Shown here one piece after another: positions 2,786 to 51,191 of a DNA stretch of 51,191 bases (the first letter of the stretch is position 1; every line of letters starts with the position of its first letter). The notes beneath the pieces are model-generated. The model was given only the letters and a program-made list of their open reading frames with translations, did not search any database and had not been told where the DNA came from. Origin of the DNA: a virus (Duplodnaviria; Caudoviricetes); the IMG/VR virus record IMGVR_UViG_3300033153_012783, positions 1-51,191 of that record, one strand, 5' to 3'. The position numbers were made by a program, and so were the translations under genes.

Positions 2786-3087
2786 GTGATATCTTTAAGG
2801 CCCAGACGCTCAAACTTGAATTCACTATTGTTGTCCAAGATGGTGCTGTCGTAGATTTATCAGCTGTTACCTCCTATGATTTGGAATTTAGAAAGCCTGA
2901 TGGCACTTGTGTTACCAAAACACCAAGCTTTGTGTCAGATGGTACGGATGGGAAAATACAATACACAACATTAACCACGGATCTTGATCAGGCAGGCTCC
3001 TGGTCAGTTCAATCCATTGTTATTGATGGGGCTAATGATTATCCGACAGAAACAGTGAGTTTTGTGGTCCAAGACCGTCTTTGCTAA
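2782..3087 (+). CDS. BppU N-terminal-like Ig-fold virion adaptor protein
   Basis: Motifs DLS...FRKPDGT, DGTDGKIQY, DLDQAGSW are typical of this family. Confidence 0.65.
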   Translation: MSDIFKAQTLKLEFTIVVQDGAVVDLSAVTSYDLEFRKPDGTCVTKTPSFVSDGTDGKIQYTTLTTDLDQAGSWSVQSIVIDGANDYPTETVSFVVQDRLC

Positions 3088-3104
3088 GTAACCAGGATAA
3101 CTTA

Positions 3105-4412
3105 ATGGCAAAATTCAAATTACAATGGCCTATTAAGTTAGGCGGCCATCGCACCGAGAAAAAAGCAGCACTAGGTACCAGTGATGCGCTCGGTAAATTC
3201 ATGATGTTTGGTGTGACGGGTGCTGAAACGCCATCATCGGCATTAAATCTTTATAAAGCATCCTCCGCTGTCAGCAATCCAGTCAATAGAGTAGCCGAGT
3301 CTTTTGCCAGCCTGGATCCTGTCATTGAAGAAAATGGCAAAATAATCAAAGATCATCCGGTATTGGAATTATTGAGAAACCCATCACCATACTACGATGA
3401 TGTACTTTTCCTTGAAACACTCGCCAAACATTACCTGGTAACCAATGAATCCGAGATTGTGGCCATCGGTAATATCAATCGACCACCACTGGAACTGCAG
3501 CCCATCAGCCCCGCCAATGTCTCCATCGTTGAGGGTCACAATGGTCTGGCGCAATCAATGGATATTTCGGGTAATACGTTGTCTGGCCAGTATATTCTTG
3601 AACTAAAAAGAAATAATGCCCGTTATTTATCAGGAAGCCTAAGAGAACTCAAACAAATCAGGGGATTTTCAGCCAATGGAAATTCGTTATTGCGCGGTCA
3701 GTCGTTGTTGGTACCAGCTGCAAAGGAAGCCAGGCAGCACATTCTCGGCAATGATCATAATGTCAGCTTGCTGGAAAAAGGTGGCCGGTTAAGCGCCGTA
3801 TTCCATTTCGATCAAGATTTGAATGATGATGATTTTAATGAAACCCGTGACCGGGTACGTGATCAATACGGTGGCGCCAGTAAAGCCGGTGAAATTGGAG
3901 TGACGGCCGGCGGCAAGATGAAAATCAACGAAATGGGCGTCAATAATAAGGATATGGATTATGTGAAGCTGCATGCTATGGCACAACAGGCGGTCGCTAT
4001 GCAGTACAAGGTTCCGTTGCCACTGATCACGATAGTTGCAGCCACATTCAATAATTACAAAGAGGCCAAACTGGCTCTGTACGATGATGCTGTATTGCCA
4101 CTGGCTGATCGCATATTTGGTGGACTGACATCGTTCCTGATGCCAAGGTATGGCCTTGATCCATCAAAGGTTCGCATTACTTACGATATCGATACGATTA
4201 CCGCCCTGGCTGTGCGCCGGAATGAAGAATTGAAGCTGAGAAAAGAACTGGGTGTCGAATCTGATAATGAATTGCGCACACTGATTGGCCGTGAGCCATA
4301 CGAAGGCGGCAATGTAATTCATAAACCAGCTAATTTGATTCCGGTTGGAAGCGATACCGATACCGACGATCTGGAGCCGGTAATTATTCGAAACCAGAAT
4401 GATGATGAATGA
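3105..4412 (+). CDS. Portal protein, HK97 family
   Basis: HPVLELLRNPSP, GGASKAG, DMDY, NELR..GREPYEGG motifs; start moved to ATG 3105 after an AGGA RBS. Confidence 0.92.
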   Translation: MAKFKLQWPIKLGGHRTEKKAALGTSDALGKFMMFGVTGAETPSSALNLYKASSAVSNPVNRVAESFASLDPVIEENGKIIKDHPVLELLRNPSPYYDDVLFLETLAKHYLVTNESEIVAIGNINRPPLELQPISPANVSIVEGHNGLAQSMDISGNTLSGQYILELKRNNARYLSGSLRELKQIRGFSANGNSLLRGQSLLVPAAKEARQHILGNDHNVSLLEKGGRLSAVFHFDQDLNDDDFNETRDRVRDQYGGASKAGEIGVTAGGKMKINEMGVNNKDMDYVKLHAMAQQAVAMQYKVPLPLITIVAATFNNYKEAKLALYDDAVLPLADRIFGGLTSFLMPRYGLDPSKVRITYDIDTITALAVRRNEELKLRKELGVESDNELRTLIGREPYEGGNVIHKPANLIPVGSDTDTDDLEPVIIRNQNDDE

Positions 4413-4654: not shown

Positions 4655-4968
4655 GCGATAAACCCAAAACATGCATGACAGACGGTAGCGAAATTGCGCC
4701 AGACCATCGCGATATCAAAGAAAATGGTCAGCAAAAAGGATATGTTGTTTTATGTCCTGAAGAACGTGCAAAAGGTTACGTCAGACCACTTCGATTAAGT
4801 TATGTACATAATAAATGTGGCGCATTGACAACAATGGCGCATTCAATAGCAGAAACCTATGCCAGAGATCCGAATTTCTATGGTGGGACTTTCTGTGTTG
4901 GATGCGGCGACCATTTTCCGCTGGATGAATTCGTATGGGACGGAACTGACGAAATTGTTGGATCATAA
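4651..4968 (+). CDS. Hypothetical Zn-binding protein
   Basis: HxxC...CxxC (HNKC, CVGC); ETYARDPNFYGGTFC. Confidence 0.75.
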   Translation: MSDKPKTCMTDGSEIAPDHRDIKENGQQKGYVVLCPEERAKGYVRPLRLSYVHNKCGALTTMAHSIAETYARDPNFYGGTFCVGCGDHFPLDEFVWDGTDEIVGS

Positions 4969-5780
4969 TGCCCACCCCAGCCAAGGATCTGAATAATAAA
5001 TTAAAGCTCGAGGCCAAATTACGCCCGAAGATCAAGGCCTATAACGAGAAAATCCTTCTTGAGTTCAAACGACAATACAAATTCGATGGCAATATCCTTA
5101 ATGTATCCCGATTTAACGATGATCTGAATGCCATACTTGCAGACCATTACAAGGAAACATCGGAGATATTCGACGACAATATCGGGCCAGGCTTGCCGGC
5201 AGACGTTAAGCCGACCGAAGAAGATCGCCGTGATATCGAGGCCGCACTGGCAGCATACTTCCTGCTGCAATCAAAGGAACGATCATCTGGTATCAATAAC
5301 ACGACCCAGGGGGACCTCGATCGATCAATCGTTGAAGCCTCCCAGGATGAGTTGGCGCAAGGCCTTATCGGCCGTGAGTTTGTTATTGTTGTTGCTACAC
5401 TGGCAGCCGTATTTGCAGGCCGGAAGATTAACGGTAGAACAGAATCAATTATTCAGACAGAAACACAGTTTGCAGCCGAAACCGCGAAAGGCACTGAGGC
5501 CGAGATATTAAGCGGTCGAGAGCCATCCATTGTGGCGCCAAGCCGGGCAAAGAAAGCAATAAAAAAAACATGGGATACCGTGGGTGATAGCAAGGTGCGC
5601 GAGGCTCATCTTGTTGCTGATGGTCAAGAACAACTGATTTCAGACCCATTTATTGTAGGTGGCGAGAAATTGAGATGGCCAGGTGATACGTCGCTTGGCG
5701 CCAGTTTGGGAAATATTATTAATTGTCGCTGTGGTGCAAGCTATAATAAATCAGACATTATTGAATCGAGGCGATCATGA
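4968..5780 (+). CDS. Minor head protein, MuF/SPP1 gp7 family
   Basis: KTWDTVGDSKVREAH...PGD...INCRC C-terminal signature. Confidence 0.9.
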   Translation: MPTPAKDLNNKLKLEAKLRPKIKAYNEKILLEFKRQYKFDGNILNVSRFNDDLNAILADHYKETSEIFDDNIGPGLPADVKPTEEDRRDIEAALAAYFLLQSKERSSGINNTTQGDLDRSIVEASQDELAQGLIGREFVIVVATLAAVFAGRKINGRTESIIQTETQFAAETAKGTEAEILSGREPSIVAPSRAKKAIKKTWDTVGDSKVREAHLVADGQEQLISDPFIVGGEKLRWPGDTSLGASLGNIINCRCGASYNKSDIIESRRS

Positions 5781-7072
5781 CCCACTATCACGAAATGCCT
5801 GATGGAAGTAAAACAGGCAACTCCATCATTGACGAAGAAAACCCATCCAAGCATTATCATATGCTCAACGGTGTTAAATCATCAATCGAAGATAATAGTG
5901 ATACCCATACTCACACCATCGATGGCCAATTAACTGGTAAAATGATTGAAACAGACGATTCCCATAAGAGGACTGATCCAATGAATTTAGAAACCAAGCG
6001 GCTTGGCGGTGTTTTAATCAGCGTTAAAGAAACAGAACGTGCCGGGGTCAAAATTGGCATCGTCGAAGGTTATATCGCCACCTGGGATATCGATCGCGGT
6101 GACTGGATGGGCGTTAAAGACCAATTTGTTAAAGGCTGCTTCCGTGAATCCATCGCTGATCATCTAAAGCGTGGCCGACAGGTACGATTCAAAGATCATC
6201 ATGGCCGCACTATTGGTGGTTTCCCGATTGATACCGTCAGAGAAGATGATCGAGGCCTATTCGGTATCGCTGAAATTAATCTTGATGTGCAGCAAGGGCG
6301 CGAAGCCTATGCCCTAGCACTGCAGGGTGTATTGGTTGAATTCTCGATCGGTTTCTCTGTTGATGAATTCAGCATGGACGATGAACTGAGGGTTATCACC
6401 AAAGCAACCATATGGGAGGGCTCAATTGTTGATGAGCCAATGAATCCGGCTGCTGTCGTTACCTCTGTGAAATCCGTTGTGCCTTATCAGGACCTGCCAT
6501 TAGCCGATAAAAACCGTTCATGGAATGCCAGTGCCGCCATTGAAAGAGTGAAAGAATTCACCGACTCAGATGAGGCGCCAACCATTAACTATAAAAGCTC
6601 ATTTCTTCAGTATGACAAAGACCATGATGAGACATTTTCCGCCTATAAATTGCCCATTGCTGATGTAATCGATGGAAAATTACGCGCGGTCCCAAATGGT
6701 ATATTCGCAGCCGCCGAATCAATCAAAAGCGGTAATATGGATATACCGGAAGCTGATCGCCCTGGCGTCATTCGTCATATTGAGAAATATTATGCAAAAA
6801 TGGATTTGCCATCACCTTTTGAGGAAGATGATAAGCAGTATTTTATTGCCGACGATGTTGAGAAGATGGATGTTCGAACACTTGAAAAAGCTCTGCGAAA
6901 GACAGGATGTTTCAGCAAATCCGCTGGAAAAATGTTGGCCAAGAGATTGGCGGCTTCACCAAATGTTGACGATGAAGATGATTTGAACAATACTCAGCCT
7001 GAAAGCAAAACTTTTAAAGAAATTATTGATGATCTTAATGGCATAACGAAGTCATTAGCACCATCAGAATAA
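5777..7072 (+). CDS. Prohead maturation protease (HK97/U35 type) with His-rich N-terminal and extra C-terminal domains
   Basis: VEGYIATW, DQFVKGCF, FSIGF, EGSIVDEPMNPAA motifs; possible second start ATG 5981 with GAGG RBS. Confidence 0.92.
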   Translation: MTHYHEMPDGSKTGNSIIDEENPSKHYHMLNGVKSSIEDNSDTHTHTIDGQLTGKMIETDDSHKRTDPMNLETKRLGGVLISVKETERAGVKIGIVEGYIATWDIDRGDWMGVKDQFVKGCFRESIADHLKRGRQVRFKDHHGRTIGGFPIDTVREDDRGLFGIAEINLDVQQGREAYALALQGVLVEFSIGFSVDEFSMDDELRVITKATIWEGSIVDEPMNPAAVVTSVKSVVPYQDLPLADKNRSWNASAAIERVKEFTDSDEAPTINYKSSFLQYDKDHDETFSAYKLPIADVIDGKLRAVPNGIFAAAESIKSGNMDIPEADRPGVIRHIEKYYAKMDLPSPFEEDDKQYFIADDVEKMDVRTLEKALRKTGCFSKSAGKMLAKRLAASPNVDDEDDLNNTQPESKTFKEIIDDLNGITKSLAPSE

Positions 7073-7170: not shown

Positions 7171-8364
7171 GTGATGACTAAAGAAGTCACCATTCAAGAA
7201 GTCAAAGAGGCCGTTGGTGCCTTGCAGACGATGGTCGAGTCCAAAGCTGGCATTAACCAGGAAGTGCTCGATAAAATTAACACCACTCTTGATGCGCACG
7301 AAGTTAAAAATCAAGAACTCATTACCCAGCTAAAATCTGCTGAAGATAAAGAGACAGAATTCAAGGAACGTATGGATGTCCTTGAGACTGAACTCGCGCG
7401 CGCAGGCAGTACCGGTAAAAAGGATAATTACAAAGAGCAGCCTGAGTACAAGGCTCTGAACGAAATGGCCAAGATGGGCATTGAAGTTCTTAGCCAGGAA
7501 CATAAAGCATCGCTTCGCACTGATAATGATACCTCTGGCGGTTATCTTGTCCCGGTTGAAATGGACAATCTGATCACCAAGAAGATCATCGAGATCAGTG
7601 GTATTCGAGCCATTGCCCGGGTTCGTACTATCGGTAGCAAGTCTCTGGAAATGCCTATCCGTAACACCATCCCGAGTGCCACCTATGAAGGTGAATCTGA
7701 GGAAGGTGGCGATAGCCAGAGCGCTTACGATAACGAAACCATCACGGCATTCCGCCAGACTTTCACCACTCCCATTACCAAAGATATGCTGATGGATTCA
7801 GCCTTTGATATGGAAGCTGAGATTCTGGGTGATGCAGCCGAGGCCTTTGCCTCCGGTGAAGGTAATGGCTTTGTCGTTGGTACCGGTGCCAAGACTCCTG
7901 AAGGCTTCTTGGTTAATTCCGATGTCGTGGCAGCTGCCCGTAACACAACTTCATCCGGCACTATCGATCCAGAAGATGTCATTCTGCTGACCGGTGACCT
8001 GAAGGTTGGTTATGAGCCTGTCTACGTGATGAACCGCACCACATTGGCTTTCTTGCGTACTCTCAAGTCAACCACTGGTCAGTTCTTATGGCAGCCTGGC
8101 ATGAATGGCCCTGTGGCGAATACTTTGAACGGTTTCCCATATGTGCTGGCTCCCGATATGCCTGACATTGCAGCTAACTCGCTGTCCATCGCCTTTGGTG
8201 ATTTCCGCCGCGGTTATACCATTGTCGATCGTACCGGCATGAGCGTGATTCGTGATGAACTGACGTTGAAGAAAAAAGCCATCGTTGAATTCACCATGAA
8301 CCGCTGGAATACCGGTCAGGTCACGTTGCCAGAAGCCATCAAACTTCTGAAAACATTGCCTTAA
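7171..8364 (+). CDS. Major capsid protein, HK97 fold with N-terminal delta domain
   Basis: Coiled-coil N-terminus, EHK/A putative cleavage site, GGYLVP, FGDFRRGY. Confidence 0.95.
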   Translation: MMTKEVTIQEVKEAVGALQTMVESKAGINQEVLDKINTTLDAHEVKNQELITQLKSAEDKETEFKERMDVLETELARAGSTGKKDNYKEQPEYKALNEMAKMGIEVLSQEHKASLRTDNDTSGGYLVPVEMDNLITKKIIEISGIRAIARVRTIGSKSLEMPIRNTIPSATYEGESEEGGDSQSAYDNETITAFRQTFTTPITKDMLMDSAFDMEAEILGDAAEAFASGEGNGFVVGTGAKTPEGFLVNSDVVAAARNTTSSGTIDPEDVILLTGDLKVGYEPVYVMNRTTLAFLRTLKSTTGQFLWQPGMNGPVANTLNGFPYVLAPDMPDIAANSLSIAFGDFRRGYTIVDRTGMSVIRDELTLKKKAIVEFTMNRWNTGQVTLPEAIKLLKTLP

Positions 8365-8373
8365 TAGTTAATT

Positions 8374-8399
8374 AGCGGGGTGTAAAAGCCCCGCTTTTT
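8374..8399 (+). terminator. Rho-independent terminator
   Basis: AGCGGGG-TGTAAAAG-CCCCGCT followed by a T run. Confidence 0.85.
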
Positions 8400-8431
8400 A
8401 ACCCATCATTAATTTATAGAGGAATACGACG

Positions 8432-8871: not shown

Positions 8872-8902
8872 AATGCAGGGGTGTAAAAGCTCCTGCATTT
8901 TT
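8872..8902 (+). terminator. Rho-independent terminator
   Basis: AATGCAGGGG-TGTAAAAG-CTCCTGCATT plus a T run. Confidence 0.85.
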
Positions 8903-8923
8903 CACATCTAAAAGGGGTAAATT

Positions 8924-9409
8924 ATGCAACATGTTAAATTTAAAGAAGCCGGTAAGTGGGCTGATCGTCCATGTGATCCAATTTTAGAAGTTGAGGCTGG
9001 CCAAACAGTTCTTGTGTCTGATGCCCTGGCCAAAATTGTTGTCGACGATGCCAAGAAAGGTAAGCGTGTTGATGATCCTGACGCTGATCCAGAAGCCGCA
9101 GCCAAAAAGGAAGCTGATCGTTTAGAGGCTGAACAAAAAGCCAAAGCTGATGCTGAGGCTCAAGCTAAGGCAGAAGAAGAGGCTCGTATTAAGGCCGAGG
9201 AAGAAGCTAAGGCAGAAGAAGCGCGTCTGGCTGAAGAACAGGCTGCCAAAGACAAAGCGGAGCAGGAAGCCGCTGAGGAGCAGGCTAAAAAAGAGGCTGA
9301 AGAAGCGGCCGCTAAGGAAAAAGCTGATGCCGAGGCTGCCGAAGCTGCTAAAAAAGAAGCCAACAAAACTCCACCAAAAAAAGATAAGGGCAAAGCAGAG
9401 AGTAAATAA
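8924..9409 (+). CDS. Ala/Glu/Lys-rich low-complexity protein
   Basis: Small N-terminal domain plus a long EAKA-type helical tract; strong RBS. Confidence 0.8.
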   Translation: MQHVKFKEAGKWADRPCDPILEVEAGQTVLVSDALAKIVVDDAKKGKRVDDPDADPEAAAKKEADRLEAEQKAKADAEAQAKAEEEARIKAEEEAKAEEARLAEEQAAKDKAEQEAAEEQAKKEAEEAAAKEKADAEAAEAAKKEANKTPPKKDKGKAESK

Positions 9410-42412: not shown

Positions 42413-42565
42413 ATGGAATTAAGCAACTGTTGCGATGCTCCAAGATGGATGGATTTAGAATCTGACATTTGCTCTGATTGCAAAGAGCATGCTGATTTTT
42501 ACGATGAGGGTGATGAGTCTCTCGAAGATGGCCAAAATCAAAGTGGGGCAAATAAAACCGATTAA
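42413..42565 (+). CDS. Small Cys-rich protein (50 aa; not in ORF track)
   Basis: MELSNCCDAP...ICSDCKEHA; GAGGG RBS. Confidence 0.65.
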   Translation: MELSNCCDAPRWMDLESDICSDCKEHADFYDEGDESLEDGQNQSGANKTD

Positions 42566-42584
42566 TAAAAAACAAGGAAAGATA

Positions 42585-43310
42585 ATGACTACGCACTTGG
42601 TAGCTCTATCAGGCGGTAAGGACTCAACGGCAATGGCTATGCGGCTCGCTGAAATAGAGCCGAGAGATTATATCTATTTCTGCACACCCACTGGCGACGA
42701 ACTGCCTGAAATGATTGAGCACTGGAATAACCTCGAATGCATCCTTGGCAAGCCGATCATCAAATTAAAAGCGAAACTTGATCTGCATGGATTAATTGCT
42801 GAATTTTCAGCATTACCAAATCATAGGCAGCGATGGTGTACCAGGATGCTAAAAATTGAAGTGGCAAAAGCATTCTATTTAAAGAATTCACCGGCGATCG
42901 CTTATGTAGGCTTGAGGGCGGATGAAGAAGATCGAAAAGGTGGCATATATGGTGATATTGTCGATCAGAAATATCCAATGCGTGAATGGGGTTGGGATAT
43001 AAATGACGTCAAAAACTATCTGTATGAGAAGAATGTACAGATCCCAGAAAGGACGGATTGTGCGCAATGTTATGAACAAAGGCTGGGCGAATGGTGGGAT
43101 TTATGGAAAATTCATCCTGAATTATATGCAAATGCAGAAGCTCAAGAAGAAAAATATGGCCATACATTTCGAAGTGATACCAGAGATACTTGGCCAGCAA
43201 GCCTTAAATTAATGCGCGCTAGATTCGAATGTGGTGAAATACCAAGAGGATCCAGGAATCAAGAGGATTTGTTTGGCTATAATTCGAGATGCAGAGCATG
43301 TTCTTTATAA
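42585..43310 (+). CDS. PAPS-reductase-family (PP-loop) protein
   Basis: VALSGGKDSTAM, RWCTRMLK, VGLRADE..R; start moved to MTTHLV after AAGGA. Confidence 0.88.
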   Translation: MTTHLVALSGGKDSTAMAMRLAEIEPRDYIYFCTPTGDELPEMIEHWNNLECILGKPIIKLKAKLDLHGLIAEFSALPNHRQRWCTRMLKIEVAKAFYLKNSPAIAYVGLRADEEDRKGGIYGDIVDQKYPMREWGWDINDVKNYLYEKNVQIPERTDCAQCYEQRLGEWWDLWKIHPELYANAEAQEEKYGHTFRSDTRDTWPASLKLMRARFECGEIPRGSRNQEDLFGYNSRCRACSL

Positions 43311-43327
43311 TTTAATTGGAGATAATT

Positions 43328-43681
43328 ATGGAAACGAAAGGCACAGCATTAGCAAGAATTTTAAATTCTGAAATTGATGGTCAAGTTGATGATAATACGT
43401 CGAGAGGCGATGTTATCGCCAGGATGGCAAGGGCAGCCGGAATATCGGCATCAACTGTTGGACAAATATTGGGTGAAGATGTCAACTGCCCACCACTTAA
43501 TAGGCTCGAAGGATTCGCAGAAGTTCTCGGGATTTCAATGTCACGCTTAAGATCAGCTGCCGAATCAGATGGTTGCGAATATGTTGAAGAAAGCGGCAAT
43601 GCGAAGTGTGCCGTTTTAAATCTCGAGTCGAAAATTATAAACGATTTGAATGAAATGACAGAATCGATAAAAAACAATTAG
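43328..43681 (+). CDS. XRE-like HTH protein with protease-like C-terminal helix
   Basis: MARAAGISASTVGQIL...P.L..L...A.VLGIS; GGAG RBS before METK. Confidence 0.8.
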   Translation: METKGTALARILNSEIDGQVDDNTSRGDVIARMARAAGISASTVGQILGEDVNCPPLNRLEGFAEVLGISMSRLRSAAESDGCEYVEESGNAKCAVLNLESKIINDLNEMTESIKNN

Positions 43682-43685
43682 ATAA

Positions 43686-43699
43686 GTTTCACGTGAAAC
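43686..43699. promoter_or_regulatory. parS-like palindrome
   Basis: GTTTCACGTGAAAC; 14/16 match to the consensus TGTTTCACGTGAAACA. Confidence 0.7.
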
Positions 43700-43710
43700 C
43701 ATAAGGCAAG

Positions 43711-43751
43711 AAAAAGCCGCTTGACCGGGGGAGACCAAGCGGCTATCTTTT
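43711..43751. terminator. Rho-independent terminator, strongest on the minus strand and possibly bidirectional
   Basis: AAAA-AGCCGCTTG...CAAGCGGCT-ATCTTTT. Confidence 0.75.
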
Positions 43752-43815
43752 ACAGCCTGTTCAGCAGAGTTTGCGCTCTCTGAACTCGAAGGGCTTCAAG
43801 GGGCCGATCGCGTTA
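43711..43815 (-). ncRNA. Candidate ~105-nt small RNA
   Basis: Lies between a minus-strand promoter and terminator; internal GTTCAG/CTGAAC hairpin; no ORF. Confidence 0.5.
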
Positions 43816-43821
43816 ACCCGC

Positions 43822-43849
43822 ATTATAGTAATCTCCCCAATGAAATCAA
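43822..43849 (-). promoter_or_regulatory. Sigma70-like promoter on the minus strand
   Basis: TTGATT-N16-TATAAT. Confidence 0.55.
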
Positions 43850-43850
43850 G

Positions 43851-44200
43851 CCCTTCCGGTATTTATCGGGACGGGGCCAACCACCAGCCGATTTAAGCCG
43901 TGATATTGATCCTACTGGGTTACTCAAAGGATCAGCGTGGGCGTAAAACCTAGAGCGCGAGGGGTGGAAGGTCACAAACTTCCTAATAGTCTGGGTAAAG
44001 TCCGGCCATCGTGACAGGTGCCTGACCCGTATAACAACTGTGATTCTGAGAGTCATGATACGGATAAAGCGCGACACTTGAGATTAAGTTCTTAGGGTGG
44101 CGTATTTCCGGACCCAAGCTGCTCAAACTGAACGTCATATAATTAACCAAACAACCTAAATTTAGCTGATCGCCTAACAGCACCTAAATACCGAAAAGGG
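43851..44200 (+). ncRNA. Candidate ~350-nt multi-stem structured RNA, family unrecognised
   Basis: Long-range closing stem plus at least five nested helices; G-U pairs favour the plus strand; no credible ORF. Confidence 0.55.
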
Positions 44201-44204
44201 ATAA

Positions 44205-44748: not shown

Positions 44749-45177
44749 GTGGCCAAACAAAACAAAACATCGAAAGCAAAAGCTGGGAAGCAAGAGAAGC
44801 AGGAAAAGGCTCTCAAACTCAGGATTGAAGGAAATTCATATCGTGCAATAGCAAAAAAAATGGGATGCAGCAGAACACAGGCTCATACCTATGTTGTTGA
44901 AGCGCTTAAAGAAAGTACCTCAAGGATTGCTAAAAATGCTGATGATCTGCGCGATCTTGAGTTGGAACGACTTGATACTCTAATTAAGGGTTTGTATCCA
45001 AAAGCAAAAAAAGGCGATCCGCAGGCTGTTGATAAAATTCTAAAAGTAATGGATCAGCGCCAGAAGCTGACCGGCATTCAGGCCGCTCCGCAGGTACTGG
45101 GTGAAATCATCGCTGAGACTGGATCCGTTGATAAACCAAGCCTGAGAGTCCGTGTTACCTATGTTAAACCAGAGTGA
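44749..45177 (+). CDS. terS: Terminase small subunit (HTH type)
   Basis: ALKLRIEG.SYRAIA..MG.S; ELERLD.L; directly upstream of terL. Confidence 0.8.
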   Translation: MAKQNKTSKAKAGKQEKQEKALKLRIEGNSYRAIAKKMGCSRTQAHTYVVEALKESTSRIAKNADDLRDLELERLDTLIKGLYPKAKKGDPQAVDKILKVMDQRQKLTGIQAAPQVLGEIIAETGSVDKPSLRVRVTYVKPE

Positions 45178-46384
45178 CGTCGATGATGGCCCGATCGTTG
45201 ATGTCAGCATACCGGCAATATTCGAACCATTAGCACAACCAGCCAGGTACAAAGGCATCCATGGCGGCCGGGGAAGCGCGAAATCCTGGTCTGTAGCCCA
45301 GCAGCTGATCATTGATAGCCTGGCTGGTTATGAGCGTATTCTTTGTGGGCGCGAATATCAGTCAACCATCAAGGATTCCGTGAAACATATCCTCGATTCC
45401 CAGATTCGGAATATGGGTGTGGCAGACCTGTTCCACTCCACCAATAGCGAAATAATCAACAAGGAAAATGGGGCGCACTTCATATTCCATGGCCTGCGTC
45501 GTGATCCGCATAAGGTTAAATCACTCGAGGGCATCACAAAGGCCTGGATTGAAGAGGCTAATACCGTCAGCCAGGAAAGCATCGATGTTTTGGTACCGAC
45601 CGTCCGCGTTGAAAATTCAGAACTCTGGTTCACATTCAACAGCAAGGCCAAAACTGATCCCGTTTATAAGATGTTCGTTGAGAACCCGCGTGAAGATGCG
45701 ATCATCATCAAAGCGAACTATTACGACAATCCATTCTTCCCAGATGTGCTTCGCAAGGAGATGGAATACGACAAAAAGCATGATGATGGTAAATATCGTC
45801 ATATCTGGCTGGGTGAGCCCCAGGTTAATTCAGAGCAGCTGGTATTCAATGGAAAATGGAAACGTGATTCAGATATTGCGCCAGGTGAAGATACCGTTCT
45901 TTACTTCGGTGCTGACTGGGGCTTCTCACAAGATCCAACATGCCTGGTCCGGATGTGGCTCAATGAAGAAAAGCGGGAAATCTATATTGATTACGAGGCC
46001 TACGGCATCGCCGTTGAGATTGATGATCTACCGGATATGTTTGAGACAATACCCGGGGCAAAGAGATGGAAAATAACAGCGGATAGCGCACGCCCTGAAA
46101 CAATCAGCTATATTAAGCGGAAAGGTTTTAAGATCGAAGGGGCAAAGAAGGGCCCTGACAGCGTTATCGAAGGGATTGAATTTCTAAAAAACTATACAAT
46201 CGTTGTCCATCCAAGGTGCACACATGTTATTGATGAGCTCGGGCTGTATAGCTACAAAACGAATAAATTAACCGGGGAAGTTTTGCCTATACTCGAAGAT
46301 AAAAATAACCATACAATCGACGCCATCCGATATGCCTTGGAGCAGGTCGCCTTTAACAAAAGAGCCAGGATTCACATAGGATAA
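45152..46384 (+). CDS. terL: Terminase large subunit, PBSX family
   Basis: GGRGSAKS Walker A, WIEEA Walker B, GADWGF..DP, ADSARP, NHTIDAIRY. Confidence 0.96.
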   Translation: MLPMLNQSDVDDGPIVDVSIPAIFEPLAQPARYKGIHGGRGSAKSWSVAQQLIIDSLAGYERILCGREYQSTIKDSVKHILDSQIRNMGVADLFHSTNSEIINKENGAHFIFHGLRRDPHKVKSLEGITKAWIEEANTVSQESIDVLVPTVRVENSELWFTFNSKAKTDPVYKMFVENPREDAIIIKANYYDNPFFPDVLRKEMEYDKKHDDGKYRHIWLGEPQVNSEQLVFNGKWKRDSDIAPGEDTVLYFGADWGFSQDPTCLVRMWLNEEKREIYIDYEAYGIAVEIDDLPDMFETIPGAKRWKITADSARPETISYIKRKGFKIEGAKKGPDSVIEGIEFLKNYTIVVHPRCTHVIDELGLYSYKTNKLTGEVLPILEDKNNHTIDAIRYALEQVAFNKRARIHIG

Positions 46385-46660: not shown

Positions 46661-48874
46661 ATGGCTATTACCTACTCAGCCGGTGCCGGTACTGCAATCA
46701 CCTCGTTTCTGGTGACTCAGGTCCTGGGCGATCAATCCCAGCAAACAGGAAACAATACTATTGTCCTTGATGACATTCCGTCTGCGGCCACTGGATACGG
46801 CGGCAATGTAGGCGATGGCACGCTTGGAATTGGGGATTCTTACGATACTCGTCGGATAATGATTGGCCGTGGTGGCACGATTCAAGAGCGGATTGTCATC
46901 AATGATGCCGCAGGCACGGGCAATACCAGAATATTAACCGTCCATGAGGATTGGGATACAAACCCTGTCCAGACTACCGATACCGTTGATGTTTATTATG
47001 AGATCGCAGATGTTGAAGATGGCGGTGCAGGCGGCGGTATTTCATTTGCTACCCGTACTGGTTTATGGACTCTGACCCGTATTATCACCATTGGTAACGG
47101 CACTGATCCAGCCGGACTTGGAATGCATGGCGGCCAGGCGCTCGAGTGTGCTGATCGTGGTGCTGCAGATTCATTCCTGGTCAAAAATAACGGGTTTTTC
47201 CGTTTTGGCTATTATTCTGGAGGCCTGCCGATCTCCGGTGGAATTATCACGTTAACGGCTGCTACTGATGATGAGCCGGCGCAGAGTTTCGAATCAGGTG
47301 CCGATTCCGCATTTCTTGATACCTTAATCTGGGCGCAGGTCGCTACTCTTAGCCAAATCAGCAATACAGGCGCGGTTGTCTTATATGACAAAACCAAGCT
47401 ATTGAAGGCCACAGAGGAATGTGAATTATACGGCGATGCGGTCACTGATCTGAGTGTCTCAGGCCTCGGCGCAACTACTGAAATTGTCAGAGTAGATTCA
47501 GCAACCGTATGCCTGGCTTTAGTATTGGTTGACGTACAGGTCTTGGATTCCGTGGCCGATACCACAACCGAAACGATAGAGCTGACCGGCGTAGTATTTT
47601 CTGGTGTGCCTGGCTATGTCGATGTTCGCCAGAATAAAACGTGGGATCTGATTGATCCGGTATGGGATGTCACTACCTATACGGAGCTGACTTGGACGGG
47701 AACCAGTACAGGCAACGAGCTCAACGATAAGCGAAGTATTACCGCTGTGGTGCAGGAGGCTGATGGCACAAAATTGCAAGATGCTCTGGTTAATATTTAT
47801 GAAAATACCCAACTTGCCGATCTTGTTCAGGAGCTCGTAACAGATTCAAACGGTCTTGCCACAGGCTCATTTATATACAAAAAACATGCCACAAATTCAG
47901 TAACAACGACCTATGGTGGTCATGCGCTGCAGTCAGGAAAATGGTTATATCTTCCGTTTGTATCAGCGCAGGTATCAACAGAAAATTTTAATGGATCAAT
48001 TGTCTTATCTGACGATACAAATATTGTCCAAACAACTCAGGCAACAGCTATTTCTGACGGTTCAACCATTACCTGGAATGAAGATACTAATCCAAGCTCA
48101 ATTGTCGTATTTTCCGCAGGCACAGGCACGCTGTCGGTCGGAGACACGATAACGGGCGGAACCTCTAGCGCGACAGGCATTGTTACGCAGATTTTAGATG
48201 GTGATTCGGTGGCAGGAACTGTTCACATGAAGACGAGAAATGCGAATGCATTCACTGCCGGTGGCGAATCTTTGAGTAATGGTGCAGGCTGGACGGCAAC
48301 GATGACCGCGGCATCTGAACAAAGATTTAGTATATGGGCTGATGCCGTTACAAAAAGCTTCCAGACAGTCTACGATTACTGGGCTGCTAGAATGACAGAA
48401 ACAACGCTACTTTCTGCAGGAGAATTAATATGGGAATGGTGTCGATCTGCGCAATCCCAGCCGCTTTATAACACTGGAGCAAGTTTTTTCACTGAAAGAT
48501 CAAATGCAAAAGGTATTATTATTGTAAATGGTGGCGCTGGAGCAATTGATTATTTTACTGATGATGCCGGTGGAACATATACCCCACCAGATACGGTAAC
48601 ATTAACGATACAGGTAGATGATTCAGGTGGTAATGCGGTTGTTGGTGCAAGATGTAGAATTGAAAAAACATCTGATGGCAGTCTTATTTCAAACGGATCA
48701 ACGGATGGTTCTGGCGCATATACCGATTCTTATGTCTACACTACTGATGTAGCTGTTAATATTAAAGTGAGACTCAAAGGATATAAGCCATTCAGAACAA
48801 CTGGAACAATTTCTTCGGCAGGACTTACAGTTGGTGTAACATTCCAAAATGACAATATAGTGGACTTACCATAG
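46661..48874 (+). CDS. Large acidic putative virion protein (737 aa)
   Basis: G/T/D-rich; VGDTITGGTSSATG repeat unit; Ig/carboxypeptidase-regulatory-like C-terminal domain. Confidence 0.8.
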   Translation: MAITYSAGAGTAITSFLVTQVLGDQSQQTGNNTIVLDDIPSAATGYGGNVGDGTLGIGDSYDTRRIMIGRGGTIQERIVINDAAGTGNTRILTVHEDWDTNPVQTTDTVDVYYEIADVEDGGAGGGISFATRTGLWTLTRIITIGNGTDPAGLGMHGGQALECADRGAADSFLVKNNGFFRFGYYSGGLPISGGIITLTAATDDEPAQSFESGADSAFLDTLIWAQVATLSQISNTGAVVLYDKTKLLKATEECELYGDAVTDLSVSGLGATTEIVRVDSATVCLALVLVDVQVLDSVADTTTETIELTGVVFSGVPGYVDVRQNKTWDLIDPVWDVTTYTELTWTGTSTGNELNDKRSITAVVQEADGTKLQDALVNIYENTQLADLVQELVTDSNGLATGSFIYKKHATNSVTTTYGGHALQSGKWLYLPFVSAQVSTENFNGSIVLSDDTNIVQTTQATAISDGSTITWNEDTNPSSIVVFSAGTGTLSVGDTITGGTSSATGIVTQILDGDSVAGTVHMKTRNANAFTAGGESLSNGAGWTATMTAASEQRFSIWADAVTKSFQTVYDYWAARMTETTLLSAGELIWEWCRSAQSQPLYNTGASFFTERSNAKGIIIVNGGAGAIDYFTDDAGGTYTPPDTVTLTIQVDDSGGNAVVGARCRIEKTSDGSLISNGSTDGSGAYTDSYVYTTDVAVNIKVRLKGYKPFRTTGTISSAGLTVGVTFQNDNIVDLP

Positions 48875-48884
48875 GAGCTAAAAA

Positions 48885-51191
48885 ATGAGCATCAGCGATG
48901 ATTGGGACTTAGATTATGCCAATACAATACTGAGCCATATCGATGGTGTATTGAGTTATGACACAGGCGGCGGTCGTCAGCCTGCCGTTGGCGAATATAT
49001 TATCGGCAATACTTCCGGCGCTGTGGGTAAAATCCTCGCTGTCACTGGAAATACAACATCTGGCACGATGACGCTGACCGATACGGTGGGCTTCTTTGAA
49101 GATAACGAAACATTCGAGATTTTATCATTTGTCGGATTTGATAATGTCACCACACAGGGTAATGGTTTTTCGTTAGGGACTACCGTCACTGATTCTGTAA
49201 CTGGATCCATTGATGTAAAGGCCATTGAGTACAATGATGATGGTTTGGGGACAGGTACTCTATTTGGAACTAATTTCACCGCATTCGCGGACAGCTTGGT
49301 ACTGAAAGAGACCGGAGGATCGACCGATATTGCTGATTCTGTTGGCACCGGTACCGACAACGATGCAGAATTAACGACAACGCAAACCGATGGTACTTTG
49401 GCTGTTCCTGGTACTGCACAAACAAATGATTCGGTGATTATCCATTACGATGCAGGCACTGTGGCTATCCCAGAGCAAGCATTACTAGAGGATGCCACTA
49501 CGGGTGCGATCGGCTTGGTAGAGCAGGTTAGTGGCGTAGCGGCAACTGGGTCAGTGAGACTTGTTGATTACGATTCAACTGGTGGTGTGTTCACTGATAA
49601 TAATACGCTGAGAGTGGATCAGGTTATTGCTTATAATAACCAGGTTGCCGGTCAAGTATTCTCGGTTGGTGATGTGGTGGTGGGCGGTACTTCCGGTGCC
49701 ACTGGCCGCGTGCTGGCTGATACCGGTACAGAGCTTATTTTGGCGGACGAATCCGGCACATGGACCACAACTGAAGATTTAGAGGTCGGCGGTACCAAGA
49801 TTGCCGAGGCCAACGGAACCAATACCACGCTGAATGTGGCTACTTGTGATATTCCAAGCGGTATCCGTACTGAACAACGCCCCAATTCAATCGGCGGCGG
49901 CTCTCAGCAAGGCGGTATTTATGCTGCTGCAACCGGGCTTAATATTGTTCGTAAATTCAACAGTCTATACACCTATAACCAAGATACTTTCGATGAGCTT
50001 GATCAGTTGGATGATGACGAAGCAATGGAGGCCTTTGGTAAGGGTACATCTTATGCTCTGACCTTCGGATGGAGAGTTCCAGACCTTTCATTCCGGTTCG
50101 TGAGACAGGCAGGTGTTGTGGATACTACGGGCGCCAACGTCTGGGCTAATCCTCAGACGGTGGGTGCACAAAATAAAATCACCGATACCGCTTTTGATTA
50201 CACATCGGCACAACCCTATCGTCAGCCTCAATTATATATTGAAAAAGATGGCGTGAAGGTCGACCCTTGGTGGTTAGAGGGTCAAATTGATGTGCTCATT
50301 AAGACCAAAACGCGCACCGATACAAACTATATCGATCCTGCGACTCCAGGCCTGGGACAGTTGATTCCAGGTGGCGATCCGGCTGTCAATGGTTCCTATA
50401 CGGTATTAAATCGTGAATTTCATGTCTCTACCTATGACGCCACACAATCACCAGCCGCGGCAGCAGGCGTTAATACTATCGCTCTTGGTACGGGCGCTGA
50501 TGTAGCCAGTGATCGCAACCCTAACGGCACGCATACCATGGATTACACGGGCGGCTCTGGCGCTACGTTGATCGTTGGTGAAGAATTCACCGCTGGTATC
50601 GGTAATGGTTTGAAGGTGGGTATTGTGGTATCCGATACAGGTGGCGCAGGGGCTACTGGCACACTTGAATATGTGCTGAAAACTGGCACTAATTTCGTTA
50701 ATACAGACTCATGTACTGCTGAAATATCAGGCAAGACATTTACCTCACCAACTCCAACTAATGTCGTGGCTGGTTTTGGTACAGATATTCGCTTTAGCGT
50801 TATTGATCTGGCGGCCACACCTTCTGGCGGTACGGGCATCACTGGCACCTTCATTCCCGGCGAACCTGTCACTCAGGCGGTAACTGGTGCCACAGGCTTT
50901 GTTGTTCTCGCTAATACCACTACCGATCTGCTTTATATTGAGGTTAATACTGGAACATTCTCAGGCGATAACGATATTACCGGCGATGTATCAGCAGCTT
51001 CCTGGGATGCAGGTACAGGTGCAACCTATCCATCGGCTACCGAGTTTAACGGTGATCTGAACAATGGTGATGGCGCACAGCCTTACGCAGGTTCTGTATC
51101 GGGTGATATCGCCGGTACGGGCGCTGAGACCATGCAGAATATCTACCAATATTCGAAATATGCTGCCGCCCAGGAACAGGCTACGATCTCC
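48885..51191 (+). CDS. N-terminal part of 1027-aa acidic putative virion protein (missed by ORF track because it runs off the end)
   Basis: AGGAG RBS, ATG 48885 (MSISDDWDLDYAN); hand translation open to the end and joins 1..891. Confidence 0.9.
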   Translation, partial: MSISDDWDLDYANTILSHIDGVLSYDTGGGRQPAVGEYIIGNTSGAVGKILAVTGNTTSGTMTLTDTVGFFEDNETFEILSFVGFDNVTTQGNGFSLGTTVTDSVTGSIDVKAIEYNDDGLGTGTLFGTNFTAFADSLVLKETGGSTDIADSVGTGTDNDAELTTTQTDGTLAVPGTAQTNDSVIIHYDAGTVAIPEQALLEDATTGAIGLVEQVSGVAATGSVRLVDYDSTGGVFTDNNTLRVDQVIAYNNQVAGQVFSVGDVVVGGTSGATGRVLADTGTELILADESGTWTTTEDLEVGGTKIAEANGTNTTLNVATCDIPSGIRTEQRPNSIGGGSQQGGIYAAATGLNIVRKFNSLYTYNQDTFDELDQLDDDEAMEAFGKGTSYALTFGWRVPDLSFRFVRQAGVVDTTGANVWANPQTVGAQNKITDTAFDYTSAQPYRQPQLYIEKDGVKVDPWWLEGQIDVLIKTKTRTDTNYIDPATPGLGQLIPGGDPAVNGSYTVLNREFHVSTYDATQSPAAAAGVNTIALGTGADVASDRNPNGTHTMDYTGGSGATLIVGEEFTAGIGNGLKVGIVVSDTGGAGATGTLEYVLKTGTNFVNTDSCTAEISGKTFTSPTPTNVVAGFGTDIRFSVIDLAATPSGGTGITGTFIPGEPVTQAVTGATGFVVLANTTTDLLYIEVNTGTFSGDNDITGDVSAASWDAGTGATYPSATEFNGDLNNGDGAQPYAGSVSGDIAGTGAETMQNIYQYSKYAAAQEQATIS
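51078..51191. repeat. Terminal direct repeat, right copy
   Basis: Identical to 1-114. Confidence 0.97.

Follow-up and report, generated by a model that had tools for sequence, protein, structure and literature searches.

Why should a tailed phage carry, outside its head module, a small helix-turn-helix (HTH) protein whose C-terminal end resembles that of its own prohead protease? The question arises at positions 43328 to 43681 of a virus sequence of 51,191 nt, which is referred to below, at its full length, as the window. The window is a phage contig, circular and complete: bases 1-114 recur at 51078-51191 (a 114-nt terminal overlap), and the IMG/VR record is classed as carrying direct terminal repeats and as 100% complete. 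Since the contig is circular, the HTH gene and the protease gene are separated by about 13 kb across the junction, and not by the 36 kb given in a first-pass annotation, in which the protein was taken to be a DNA-binding cargo of the prohead, possibly ejected together with the DNA. We put at about 0.55 the probability that the HTH protein is a domain accessory to the protease system which, in this phage, has become a separate protein and is directed to the procapsid by a tail of the protease type; this figure and those behind the wording used for the other explanations overlap in part and are not exclusive. The parts of the gene are listed here, with the confidence of the AlphaFold2 (AF2) models expressed as the predicted local distance difference test (pLDDT).

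43328..43681 (stop codon included), plus strand: gene of the HTH protein, 117 aa, starting with ATG; 25 homologues at 47-74% identity.
43319-43323, plus strand: GGAGA ribosome-binding site of the HTH gene, 5 nt upstream of the ATG at 43328.
43331..43339, plus strand: E-T-K at the N-terminus (residues 2-4), with the first conserved Gly of the domain as the next residue; a putative protease site or the relic of one.
43340..43582, plus strand: core XRE-fold domain, residues 5-85, with five helices and the motifs C-P-P..R-L-x-G-F and D-G-C-x-Y (pLDDT >90).
43613..43633, plus strand: hinge, residues 96-102 (VLNLESK), with the second E-x-K at residue 100 (pLDDT <50 at 96-100).
43634..43678, plus strand: C-terminal amphipathic helix, residues 103-117, IINDLNEMTESIKNN, a protease-like tail according to the profile search and the AF2 model.

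The open reading frame (ORF) spans 43316/43328-43681 on the plus strand, and the protein ends in LESKIINDLNEMTESIKNN. The ATG at 43328 (METKG) was taken to be the true start because of the ribosome-binding site in front of it and of the MELKG start found in the homologues.

The question of what this domain accompanies in other phages was addressed by scanning IMG/VR with the HTH alignment, which gave 46 loci, in most of which the domain lies within ORFs of 300-1,200 aa. When 20 HTH-bearing long ORFs were compared with Pfam, the following domains were identified in frame with the HTH: Peptidase_S78 in 9 (L003, L004, L007, L008, L020, L024, L028, L033, and L041), ClpP in 5 (L009, L019, L026, L027, and L030), Mu-like_Pro in 2 (L031 and L036), and a capsid domain in 4 (L005, L009, L026, and L033); neither a protease nor a capsid domain was detected in 3 (L023, L034, and L044). 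An exhaustive profile search covering 1.84 billion representatives yielded 835 clusters (50% identity) at E<=0.001 and 529 at E<=1e-10. The best 150 of the 835 clusters included 146 new proteins, of which 116 exceed 250 aa in length and 22 reach at most 140 aa. The domain stands alone in 22 of the 146; 76 carry it internally, 27 at the C-terminal end, and 21 at the N-terminal end. Pfam covered 103 of the 124 that are longer than 140 aa (alignment A2) and assigned S78 to 26, ClpP to 19, NfeD1b_N to 14, S49 to 13, Mu-like_Pro to 3, and S78_2 to 2 (the ClpP, S49, and NfeD counts overlap and are not additive), along with Phage_capsid in 4 and Phage_capsid_4 in 2. The domain often sits between the protease and a scaffold or capsid part. 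The fact that it is fused to S78, ClpP/S49, and Mu gpI proteases is strong evidence, at the level of gene architecture, that it may be regarded as a dedicated accessory domain of capsid-maturation proteases with several unrelated folds. A search for fusions of this HTH with the proteases or scaffolds of other phages had been proposed in the first-pass annotation, and its outcome is strongly positive. The family-wide link to prohead proteases, together with the common tail motif and the common hinge-plus-helix anatomy described below, emerges directly from the computations.

The family seems to have escaped description so far. No curated family covering the HTH domain was found in NCBIfam, Pfam, or PHROGs, the sole PHROG match being phrog_13326, of unknown function; a search of the ESM atlas returned generic HTH clusters only; and no description of an HTH-protease fusion was found in the parts of the literature that were covered. 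A pattern scan of genome contigs gave 43 matches, none of which was confirmed, and a scan of metagenome contigs gave 7 loci only, which are mostly short. Two other features of the family can be mentioned here. Seven of the 146 representatives (P0147-P0152 and P0185) carry two tandem HTH copies. In 3 of the 103 long members, the domain is combined with a 2H phosphoesterase (LigT-like) domain, of a kind which, according to PMC5512222, is fused to MuF or portal domains in proteins proposed to be packaged and injected.

The connection with the window's own type of protease is clearest in two relatives. The locus L008 shows the same head-gene order as the window (terL-portal-MuF-protease-major capsid protein (MCP), plus the next two genes). 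Its 482-aa protease aligns with the window protease over residues 97-350, after which an HTH domain is inserted (48% identity over 101 residues), preceded by EEIETK|G and followed by a conserved ...RTLE..L.K.G.FS... region and the C-terminal end VLEKLDETTKSIKTEEH. The window HTH starts with the same ETK|G as this junction, and the insert in L008 therefore makes the window protein look like the inserted domain plus a protease-type tail, carried as a separate gene. In the closest relative, L002, whose protease is 58% and whose MCP is 57% identical, the gene immediately upstream of the protease is a stand-alone HTH. The domain is thus fused to the protease in one relative and adjacent to it in the other, whereas the window copy stands alone, about 13 kb away.

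The tail was examined next to the following head genes.

5777..7072, plus strand: S78 (HK97-type) prohead protease, 431 aa (Pfam PF04586, E 1e-17; TIGR01543; AF2 model).
5990..5998, plus strand: protease E-T-K, residues 72-74, in a disordered linker before the S78 domain (pLDDT <50 at 61-78).
7001..7057, plus strand: E-S-K of the protease (residues 409-411), where a disordered linker ends (pLDDT <50 at 394-411), and the C-terminal helix 413-427.
7171..8364, plus strand: major capsid protein of the HK97 fold, the N-terminal part of which is a delta (scaffold) domain (Pfam PF05065, E 4e-57).

The protease, which ends in PESKTFKEIIDDLNGITKSLAPSE, was modeled with a mean pLDDT of 78 as a His-rich N-terminal domain (1-60), the S78 domain (77-218), and a middle domain (240-391), with disordered stretches at 61-78, 223-237, and 394-411 and a terminal helix at 413-427. 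In the HTH model (alignment A1; mean pLDDT 82), helices 6-19, 26-37, 41-48, 57-67, and 71-80 are followed by a hairpin (83-94), a break (96-100; pLDDT <50), and a terminal helix (99-115; pLDDT 63-67). In both proteins, an E-x-K is thus predicted to lie in a linker with a pLDDT below 50, just before an isolated terminal helix. The strings on which the first-pass annotation had drawn (the LESK- end of the HTH, the PESK- end of the protease, and the METK/G start) are present as described, and the hydrophobic spacing of the two tails is identical (I103, I104, L107, M110, and I114 in the HTH vs. I416, I417, L420, I423, and L427 in the protease). When the two sequences were compared by BLASTP in a single two-sequence comparison, the tail alignment gave a non-significant E value of 15, and the pairwise match was rejected as stand-alone evidence. 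Since a match of this kind could be due to chance, the tail was tested at the level of the families.

The protease has 245 homologues at E<=0.001, 120 of which, including the window's own, were used. In their C-termini, an acidic linker leads into an amphipathic helix with the pattern phi-phi-x-[DE]-phi-[KN]-x-phi-[TK]-x-x-phi. A hidden Markov model (HMM) was built from 118 of these tails, the window protease and the near-identical P0028 being excluded, and was run against a six-frame translation of the window, cut at stop codons into 569 segments of 40 aa or more (47,164 aa). The protease ranked first (8.4 bits) and the HTH tail second of the 569 (5.6 bits; independent E value, i-E, 0.78), the match covering residues 105-120 of a 121-aa segment, that is, the very C-terminus. 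A set of 31 distinct HTH C-termini (the 25 homologues and stand-alone or C-terminal forms from the fetched loci) was then compared with 1,902 C-termini of ORFs of at least 100 aa from the same loci, which are general C-termini and not regulator tails. On the protease-tail profile, 16 of the 31 lie above the 99th percentile of these controls, and the top-scoring control is itself a protease (that of L002); the Mann-Whitney p of 3e-13 is inflated because the rows are related. A terminal peptide common to the HTH and the protease was therefore found by profile matching, weak as the pairwise likeness is: the tail similarity claimed in the first-pass annotation holds between the two families but neither between the two sequences nor, as will be seen, for this HTH and this protease in particular.

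The maturation sites bear on what may happen to such a tail. The capsid protein contains 7 E-x-K, all within residues 1-112 (the delta domain), and none in its 285-aa mature part; the protease contains 2 (at residues 72 and 409), and the HTH protein also contains 2 (at residues 2 and 100, both at domain edges), the background being 32 in 8,975 residues of 28 proteins chosen out of about 85 called ORFs. The sites that had been listed previously in the protease, the HTH, and the capsid (EHK/A, at the end of the delta domain) all exist, and the EKK/A of the portal was also located. Within the protease family, the E-T-K has its E in 82 of 120 sequences and its K in 96 of 120. In RcGTA and HK97, the capsid protein is presumably cut after the Lys of the corresponding boundary. 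Across 44 capsid homologues, the delta/mature boundary reads E (43/44) - x - K (40/44) | A (36/44) - x - L - R - T - D. The E-H-K|A of the window at residues 110-113 (nt 7498-7509) is, to judge from this conservation, the likely maturation site; in the RcGTA capsid protein (6tba), LSLEGK-ALNS is aligned with it. The protease would accordingly have a specificity for E-x-K, as the conserved E-x-K|A of its substrate suggests. A Lys or Arg precedes the first Gly of the HTH domain in 10 of 11 S78-linked forms (L033 has Q), in 0 of 5 ClpP-fused forms, and in 0 of 2 Mu-gpI-fused forms, a pattern which fits protease-specific junction sites but which could also be explained by shared descent.

Two further observations concern the protease itself. 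Its residues 1-60 (5777-5956) form a conserved His-rich domain (family consensus HxHxH...HWH...HTHT; beta-rich fold, pLDDT >90), which is possibly a metal-binding propeptide. Residues 231-427 alone (6467-7057) match a 'hypothetical protein' of Aeromonas phage AsC4_1 (28% identity, E 2e-17), and the C-terminal half of the protease therefore also exists as a free-standing gene elsewhere.

As regards the HTH domain, the best Foldseek matches of its model in the PDB are XRE-type HTHs (SinR, C.BclI, 434 repressor, HigA, DdrO, and CapH), with a root mean square deviation of 2.2-2.9 A over about 70 residues and TM scores (target) of 0.6-0.8, the best E values being 0.025-0.1 and all of them exceeding 0.001. 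The protein is therefore modeled as a five-helix lambda-repressor-like fold of the XRE / Cro-C1 superfamily. Pfam gave 21.8 bits for HTH_26 (cut-off 22) and 17.1 bits for HTH_3 (cut-off 23) in the window protein, and HTH_3 was matched at E<=1e-4 in 39 of the 103 long family members. The core motifs G..L..LN..I, G-I-x-x-x-T-V, C-P-P..R-L-x-G-F, and D-G-C-x-Y are all present in the window HTH, and their key residues are 92-100% conserved over 174 family domains. In these 174 domains, the helix-turn-helix pattern is retained (T43 97%, V44 92%, and Q46 64%, along with R26 89% and R59 98%), C54 and C83 are conserved at 98%, and a third Cys occurs about 10 residues further on in many members. Of the 174 domains, 85% are negative, with a median net charge of -6 and a median pI of 4.31, and the window protein is likewise acidic (net charge -8, pI 4.46). 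The window HTH thus shares with the regulators SinR, C.BclI, 434 repressor, and HigA the five-helix fold and a G-I-S-x-S-T-V-x-Q-I-L pattern but differs from them in that its family is strongly acidic, carries the invariant C-P-P and D-G-C-x-Y, and is usually fused to capsid proteases. Because of the acidic charge, classical operator binding is doubtful, and DNA binding by the modeled domain is a speculation that we neither put forward nor dismiss. The link with the prohead protease proposed in the first-pass annotation is thus borne out by the fusions, the tail, the hinge-helix anatomy, and the capsid E-x-K|A; the description of the protein as a DNA-binding cargo is not, the XRE fold being present in a domain that is strongly acidic throughout the family.

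How might such a protein work? We suggest that the HTH gene is a free-standing copy of an XRE-fold domain which is normally part of phage capsid-maturation proteases. Its helix 103-117, which is of the same type as the end helix of the phage's own S78 protease, would dock the protein inside the assembling procapsid, on the capsid delta domain or the N-arm, in the way supposed for the tail of the protease itself. The activated protease inside would cut at the E-x-K of the hinge, and perhaps also after K4, and an acidic domain of about 11 kDa would thereby be freed from its anchor. We infer the attachment to the capsid, the cut, and what becomes of the domain once it is free. A complex prediction for the capsid protein (alignment A3) and the HTH (A1), run without controls, gave a score of 0.00, which speaks neither for nor against binding. 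Since related phages do without the HTH, we lean toward an optional internal protein and away from a needed scaffold.

It is rather doubtful, though it deserves to be spelled out, that the trimmed acidic XRE-fold domain is kept in the filled head, ejected with the DNA, and active as an effector in the first seconds of the infection, where it would be a regulator, a DNA mimic directed against restriction, or a partner of the PAPS-reductase-like enzyme encoded next to it; co-ejection with the DNA, which the first-pass annotation had also envisaged, is a speculation. In a variant suggested by analogy with FlgM export in flagella, the loading of a regulator into procapsids might couple late gene expression to capsid assembly.

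Several results weigh against the idea of a split-off, tail-borne protease domain. First, there is the setting of the gene, in which the following features were identified.

38382: replication initiator gene, upstream of the HTH gene.
39674: RusA-like resolvase gene, upstream of the HTH gene.
42014: Q-like zinc-ribbon (a weak match), upstream of the HTH gene.
42489..43310, plus strand: PAPS-reductase-like (PP-loop) gene (Pfam PF01507, phrog_424), directly upstream of the HTH gene and a recurrent neighbor of it.
43715..43744, no strand assigned: stem-loop of 12 GC-rich base pairs with A-run and T-run flanks, 34 nt past the HTH stop codon.
44749-45177: terS, in the head/packaging module.
45152-46384: terL, in the head/packaging module.
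3081-4412: portal gene, in the head module.
4968-5780: MuF-like gene, in the head module.

The HTH gene lies outside the head module. Replication, nin-like, and PAPS-reductase genes precede it, and the packaging genes come shortly after it: from its end at 43681 to the start of terS at 44749, there is a single ORF, which has no assigned function. The stem-loop, beyond which about 460 nt without an ORF precede the packaging genes, looks like a bidirectional terminator. The location of the gene and this hairpin suggest that it may be expressed earlier than the head genes, and it may close an earlier transcription unit.

The other unfavorable results, to which the pairwise E value of 15 also belongs, concern the distribution of the domain and its tail. 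The domain was found in 0 of 20 long records carrying the same protease family, 10 of which are at least 90% complete, by a search which detects the window copy at E 7e-57; the HTH gene is accessory. The domain was not found either by tblastn with the window HTH and two other family members in 50,697 records of isolated phages. Among the 50%-identity representatives of the broad family, only 3 of 22 stand-alone forms lie above the 99th-percentile mark, so that the tail resemblance is a feature of the window's own sub-lineage. Covariation between the HTH and protease tails of six phages, three of whose pairs are assumed to be on one contig only from the equal lengths of their contigs, gave no clear signal (the true pairing was equaled or beaten by 26 of 720 permutations, or by 16 of 120 when the window is left out). 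The window HTH tail scores just as well against the protease tails of other phages, that of its own phage coming 5th-6th of 120, which indicates that this tail resembles the family motif and is not a recent copy of the tail of its own protease. An [ST]K at residues -30 to -11 is enriched in proteases (34/120) and HTHs (9/21) as compared with the controls (110/1,902) but is far from universal in front of the helix, and L008 lacks it. Lastly, a C-terminal amphipathic helix is also the dimerization element expected of an XRE regulator.

This last point, along with the setting of the gene, introduces the first of the rival explanations, namely an ordinary cytoplasmic XRE regulator of the delayed-early/late switch, which would bind DNA as a dimer formed via its C-terminal helix and in which the tail likeness would be a generic amphipathic similarity. 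Late regulators are often located just upstream of terS/terL, and the position of the HTH gene is a lambdoid one, coming after the replication genes, the RusA-like gene, and the weak Q-like match; the fold, the weak HTH_26 and HTH_3 matches, the terminator-like hairpin, and the non-significant pairwise tail comparison all agree with this explanation. We nevertheless hold it to be unlikely: the domain is acidic, matches to the protease-tail profile are far commoner among the tails of the family than among control C-termini, and the fusions to capsid-maturation proteases of unrelated folds in most family members, as well as the insertion in L008, are left unexplained. It matches no named late-activator family in Pfam, PHROGs, or NCBIfam, and in the absence of an HTH family match in these three collections, an identity as a late activator or antiterminator (RinA, ArpU, Q, or Mor/C) was not adopted.

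The domain might alternatively be an assembly helper and not a cargo, in the form of a scaffold-like or protease-regulating module, for example one that oligomerizes the protease or holds it inactive, which would enter the procapsid with the protease, be degraded, and be gone before DNA packaging. Its usual place in the polyprotein, between the protease and the scaffold or capsid part, would suit such a role, as would its candidate cleavage sites on both flanks and its acidic character, many scaffolds being acidic. It is dispensable, however, in the 20 relatives mentioned above, which have the same protease and capsid families, and a folded 11-kDa domain with no internal E-x-K would not obviously be degradable or small enough to exit, which makes this explanation, too, a rather improbable one.

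Last among the rivals comes a DNA- or protein-binding partner of the PAPS-reductase-like enzyme, in a two-gene module for nucleic-acid modification or co-activation whose link with the head genes would be merely locational. A PAPS-reductase gene and the HTH gene are direct neighbors in five independent lineages (the window, L027, the L010-L018 group, L029, and L053), the pairs being located at 42489-43310 and 43328-43681 in the window, 9112-10321 in L018, about 9341-11094 in L027, and 2803-3960 in L029; in the L010-L018 group, the two genes form part of the head module, with the portal on one side and the S78 protease on the other. The two HTH cysteines conserved at about 98% and a weak DndC-like match, far below the cut-off, point in the same direction, but this partnership is very unlikely, as such a neighbor occurs in only 12 of 53 HTH-bearing loci, 9 of the 12 belonging to one near-identical group, and as the in-frame protease fusions would again be left unexplained. 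As a separate observation, the invariant HTH cysteines and the CxxC motifs of the PAPS-reductase-like enzyme might point to sulfur or redox chemistry.

Some other features of the window deserve to be recorded. Between the HTH gene and the packaging genes, there is a 523-nt gap without any plus-strand ORF (43682-44204), with the hairpin at its start. Its folding is more stable than that of shuffled sequences (z -2.8; 0 of 100 shuffles as stable), and an Rfam scan of the whole window, this gap included, gave no match; it could contain a late promoter and leader, or a pac/cos site. The GGGGTGTAAAAGC(C/T)CC element is present in two copies, at 8377-8407 (after the capsid gene) and 8878-8908 (after the next gene), which may be terminators or regulatory hairpins. 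At 8924-9409, a 161-aa protein without any family match, the C-terminal two thirds of which consist almost entirely of Ala, Glu, and Lys and are coiled-coil-like, may be a decoration or scaffold-like head protein. The interval between terL and the portal gene contains three large ORFs (46661-48874, 55-891, and 891-2486; 737, 278, and 531 aa) without a PHROG match at E<=0.001, which is an unusual content for this position in a head module.

Does the proposal of a protease domain with a protease-type tail have parallels in known systems? In HK97, the C-terminal segment of the gp4 maturation protease reportedly has an encapsidation function (Duda, Oh & Hendrix, 2013). As in the window, gp4 is said to be an S78-family protease whose C-terminal part, and not the catalytic domain, is taken to direct entry into the procapsid, and the HK97 capsid, like that of the window, reportedly loses its delta domain after a Lys. 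Unlike HK97, the window has a second, non-protease protein with the same type of tail, and its protease (431 aa) is much longer than gp4, with extra N-terminal and middle domains. In the herpesvirus protease/scaffold, lambda C/Nu3, and Mu I/Z pairs, one common C-terminal capsid-binding tail is preceded by a maturation site; these tails come from nested in-frame genes, whereas those of the window come from separate genes 13 kb apart. Encapsulin cargo docks inside an HK97-fold shell by a short C-terminal peptide; encapsulins differ from the window in having neither a protease step nor DNA, and the likeness lies in the docking principle and not in a comparison of motifs. The T4 prohead protease trims a capsid targeting tag. 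Tags of this kind, a feature common to the ends of diverse small internal proteins of T4, load them into the prohead core and can carry green fluorescent protein into capsids (PMC3012670); the T4 tag is N-terminal and aimed at the scaffold core and its cargoes are mostly basic, whereas the tag in the window would be C-terminal and its cargo acidic. The phage 80alpha scaffold and CpmB of SaPI1 are described in PMC5644958 as different proteins with a common C-terminal helix-and-hook that binds the same capsid site. Like the window pair, these are two proteins with a common short C-terminal amphipathic helix motif; CpmB differs in being a satellite's size-redirecting scaffold with an RIIK hook, whereas the window pair comes from one phage, has a different motif, and suggests no role in size.

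As to what the finding means, loading into heads by short terminal tags is known for T4 and has been inferred for the HK97 protease, and we know of no general cargo system in the very large HK97-like group. The fact that several unrelated families of capsid proteases have each acquired the domain points to a common need inside procapsids. If the ejection of the domain were true, the family of 835 clusters would amount to a general delivery route in tailed phages of several protease lineages. The window may be seen as a natural split version, in which the domain has kept a protease-type tail, and hence as a ready-made experiment on the role of this tail. If the tail were sufficient for encapsidation, it would provide a portable loading tag for HK97-type capsids, and it would open the question of the role that an acidic XRE-fold domain plays inside the capsid.

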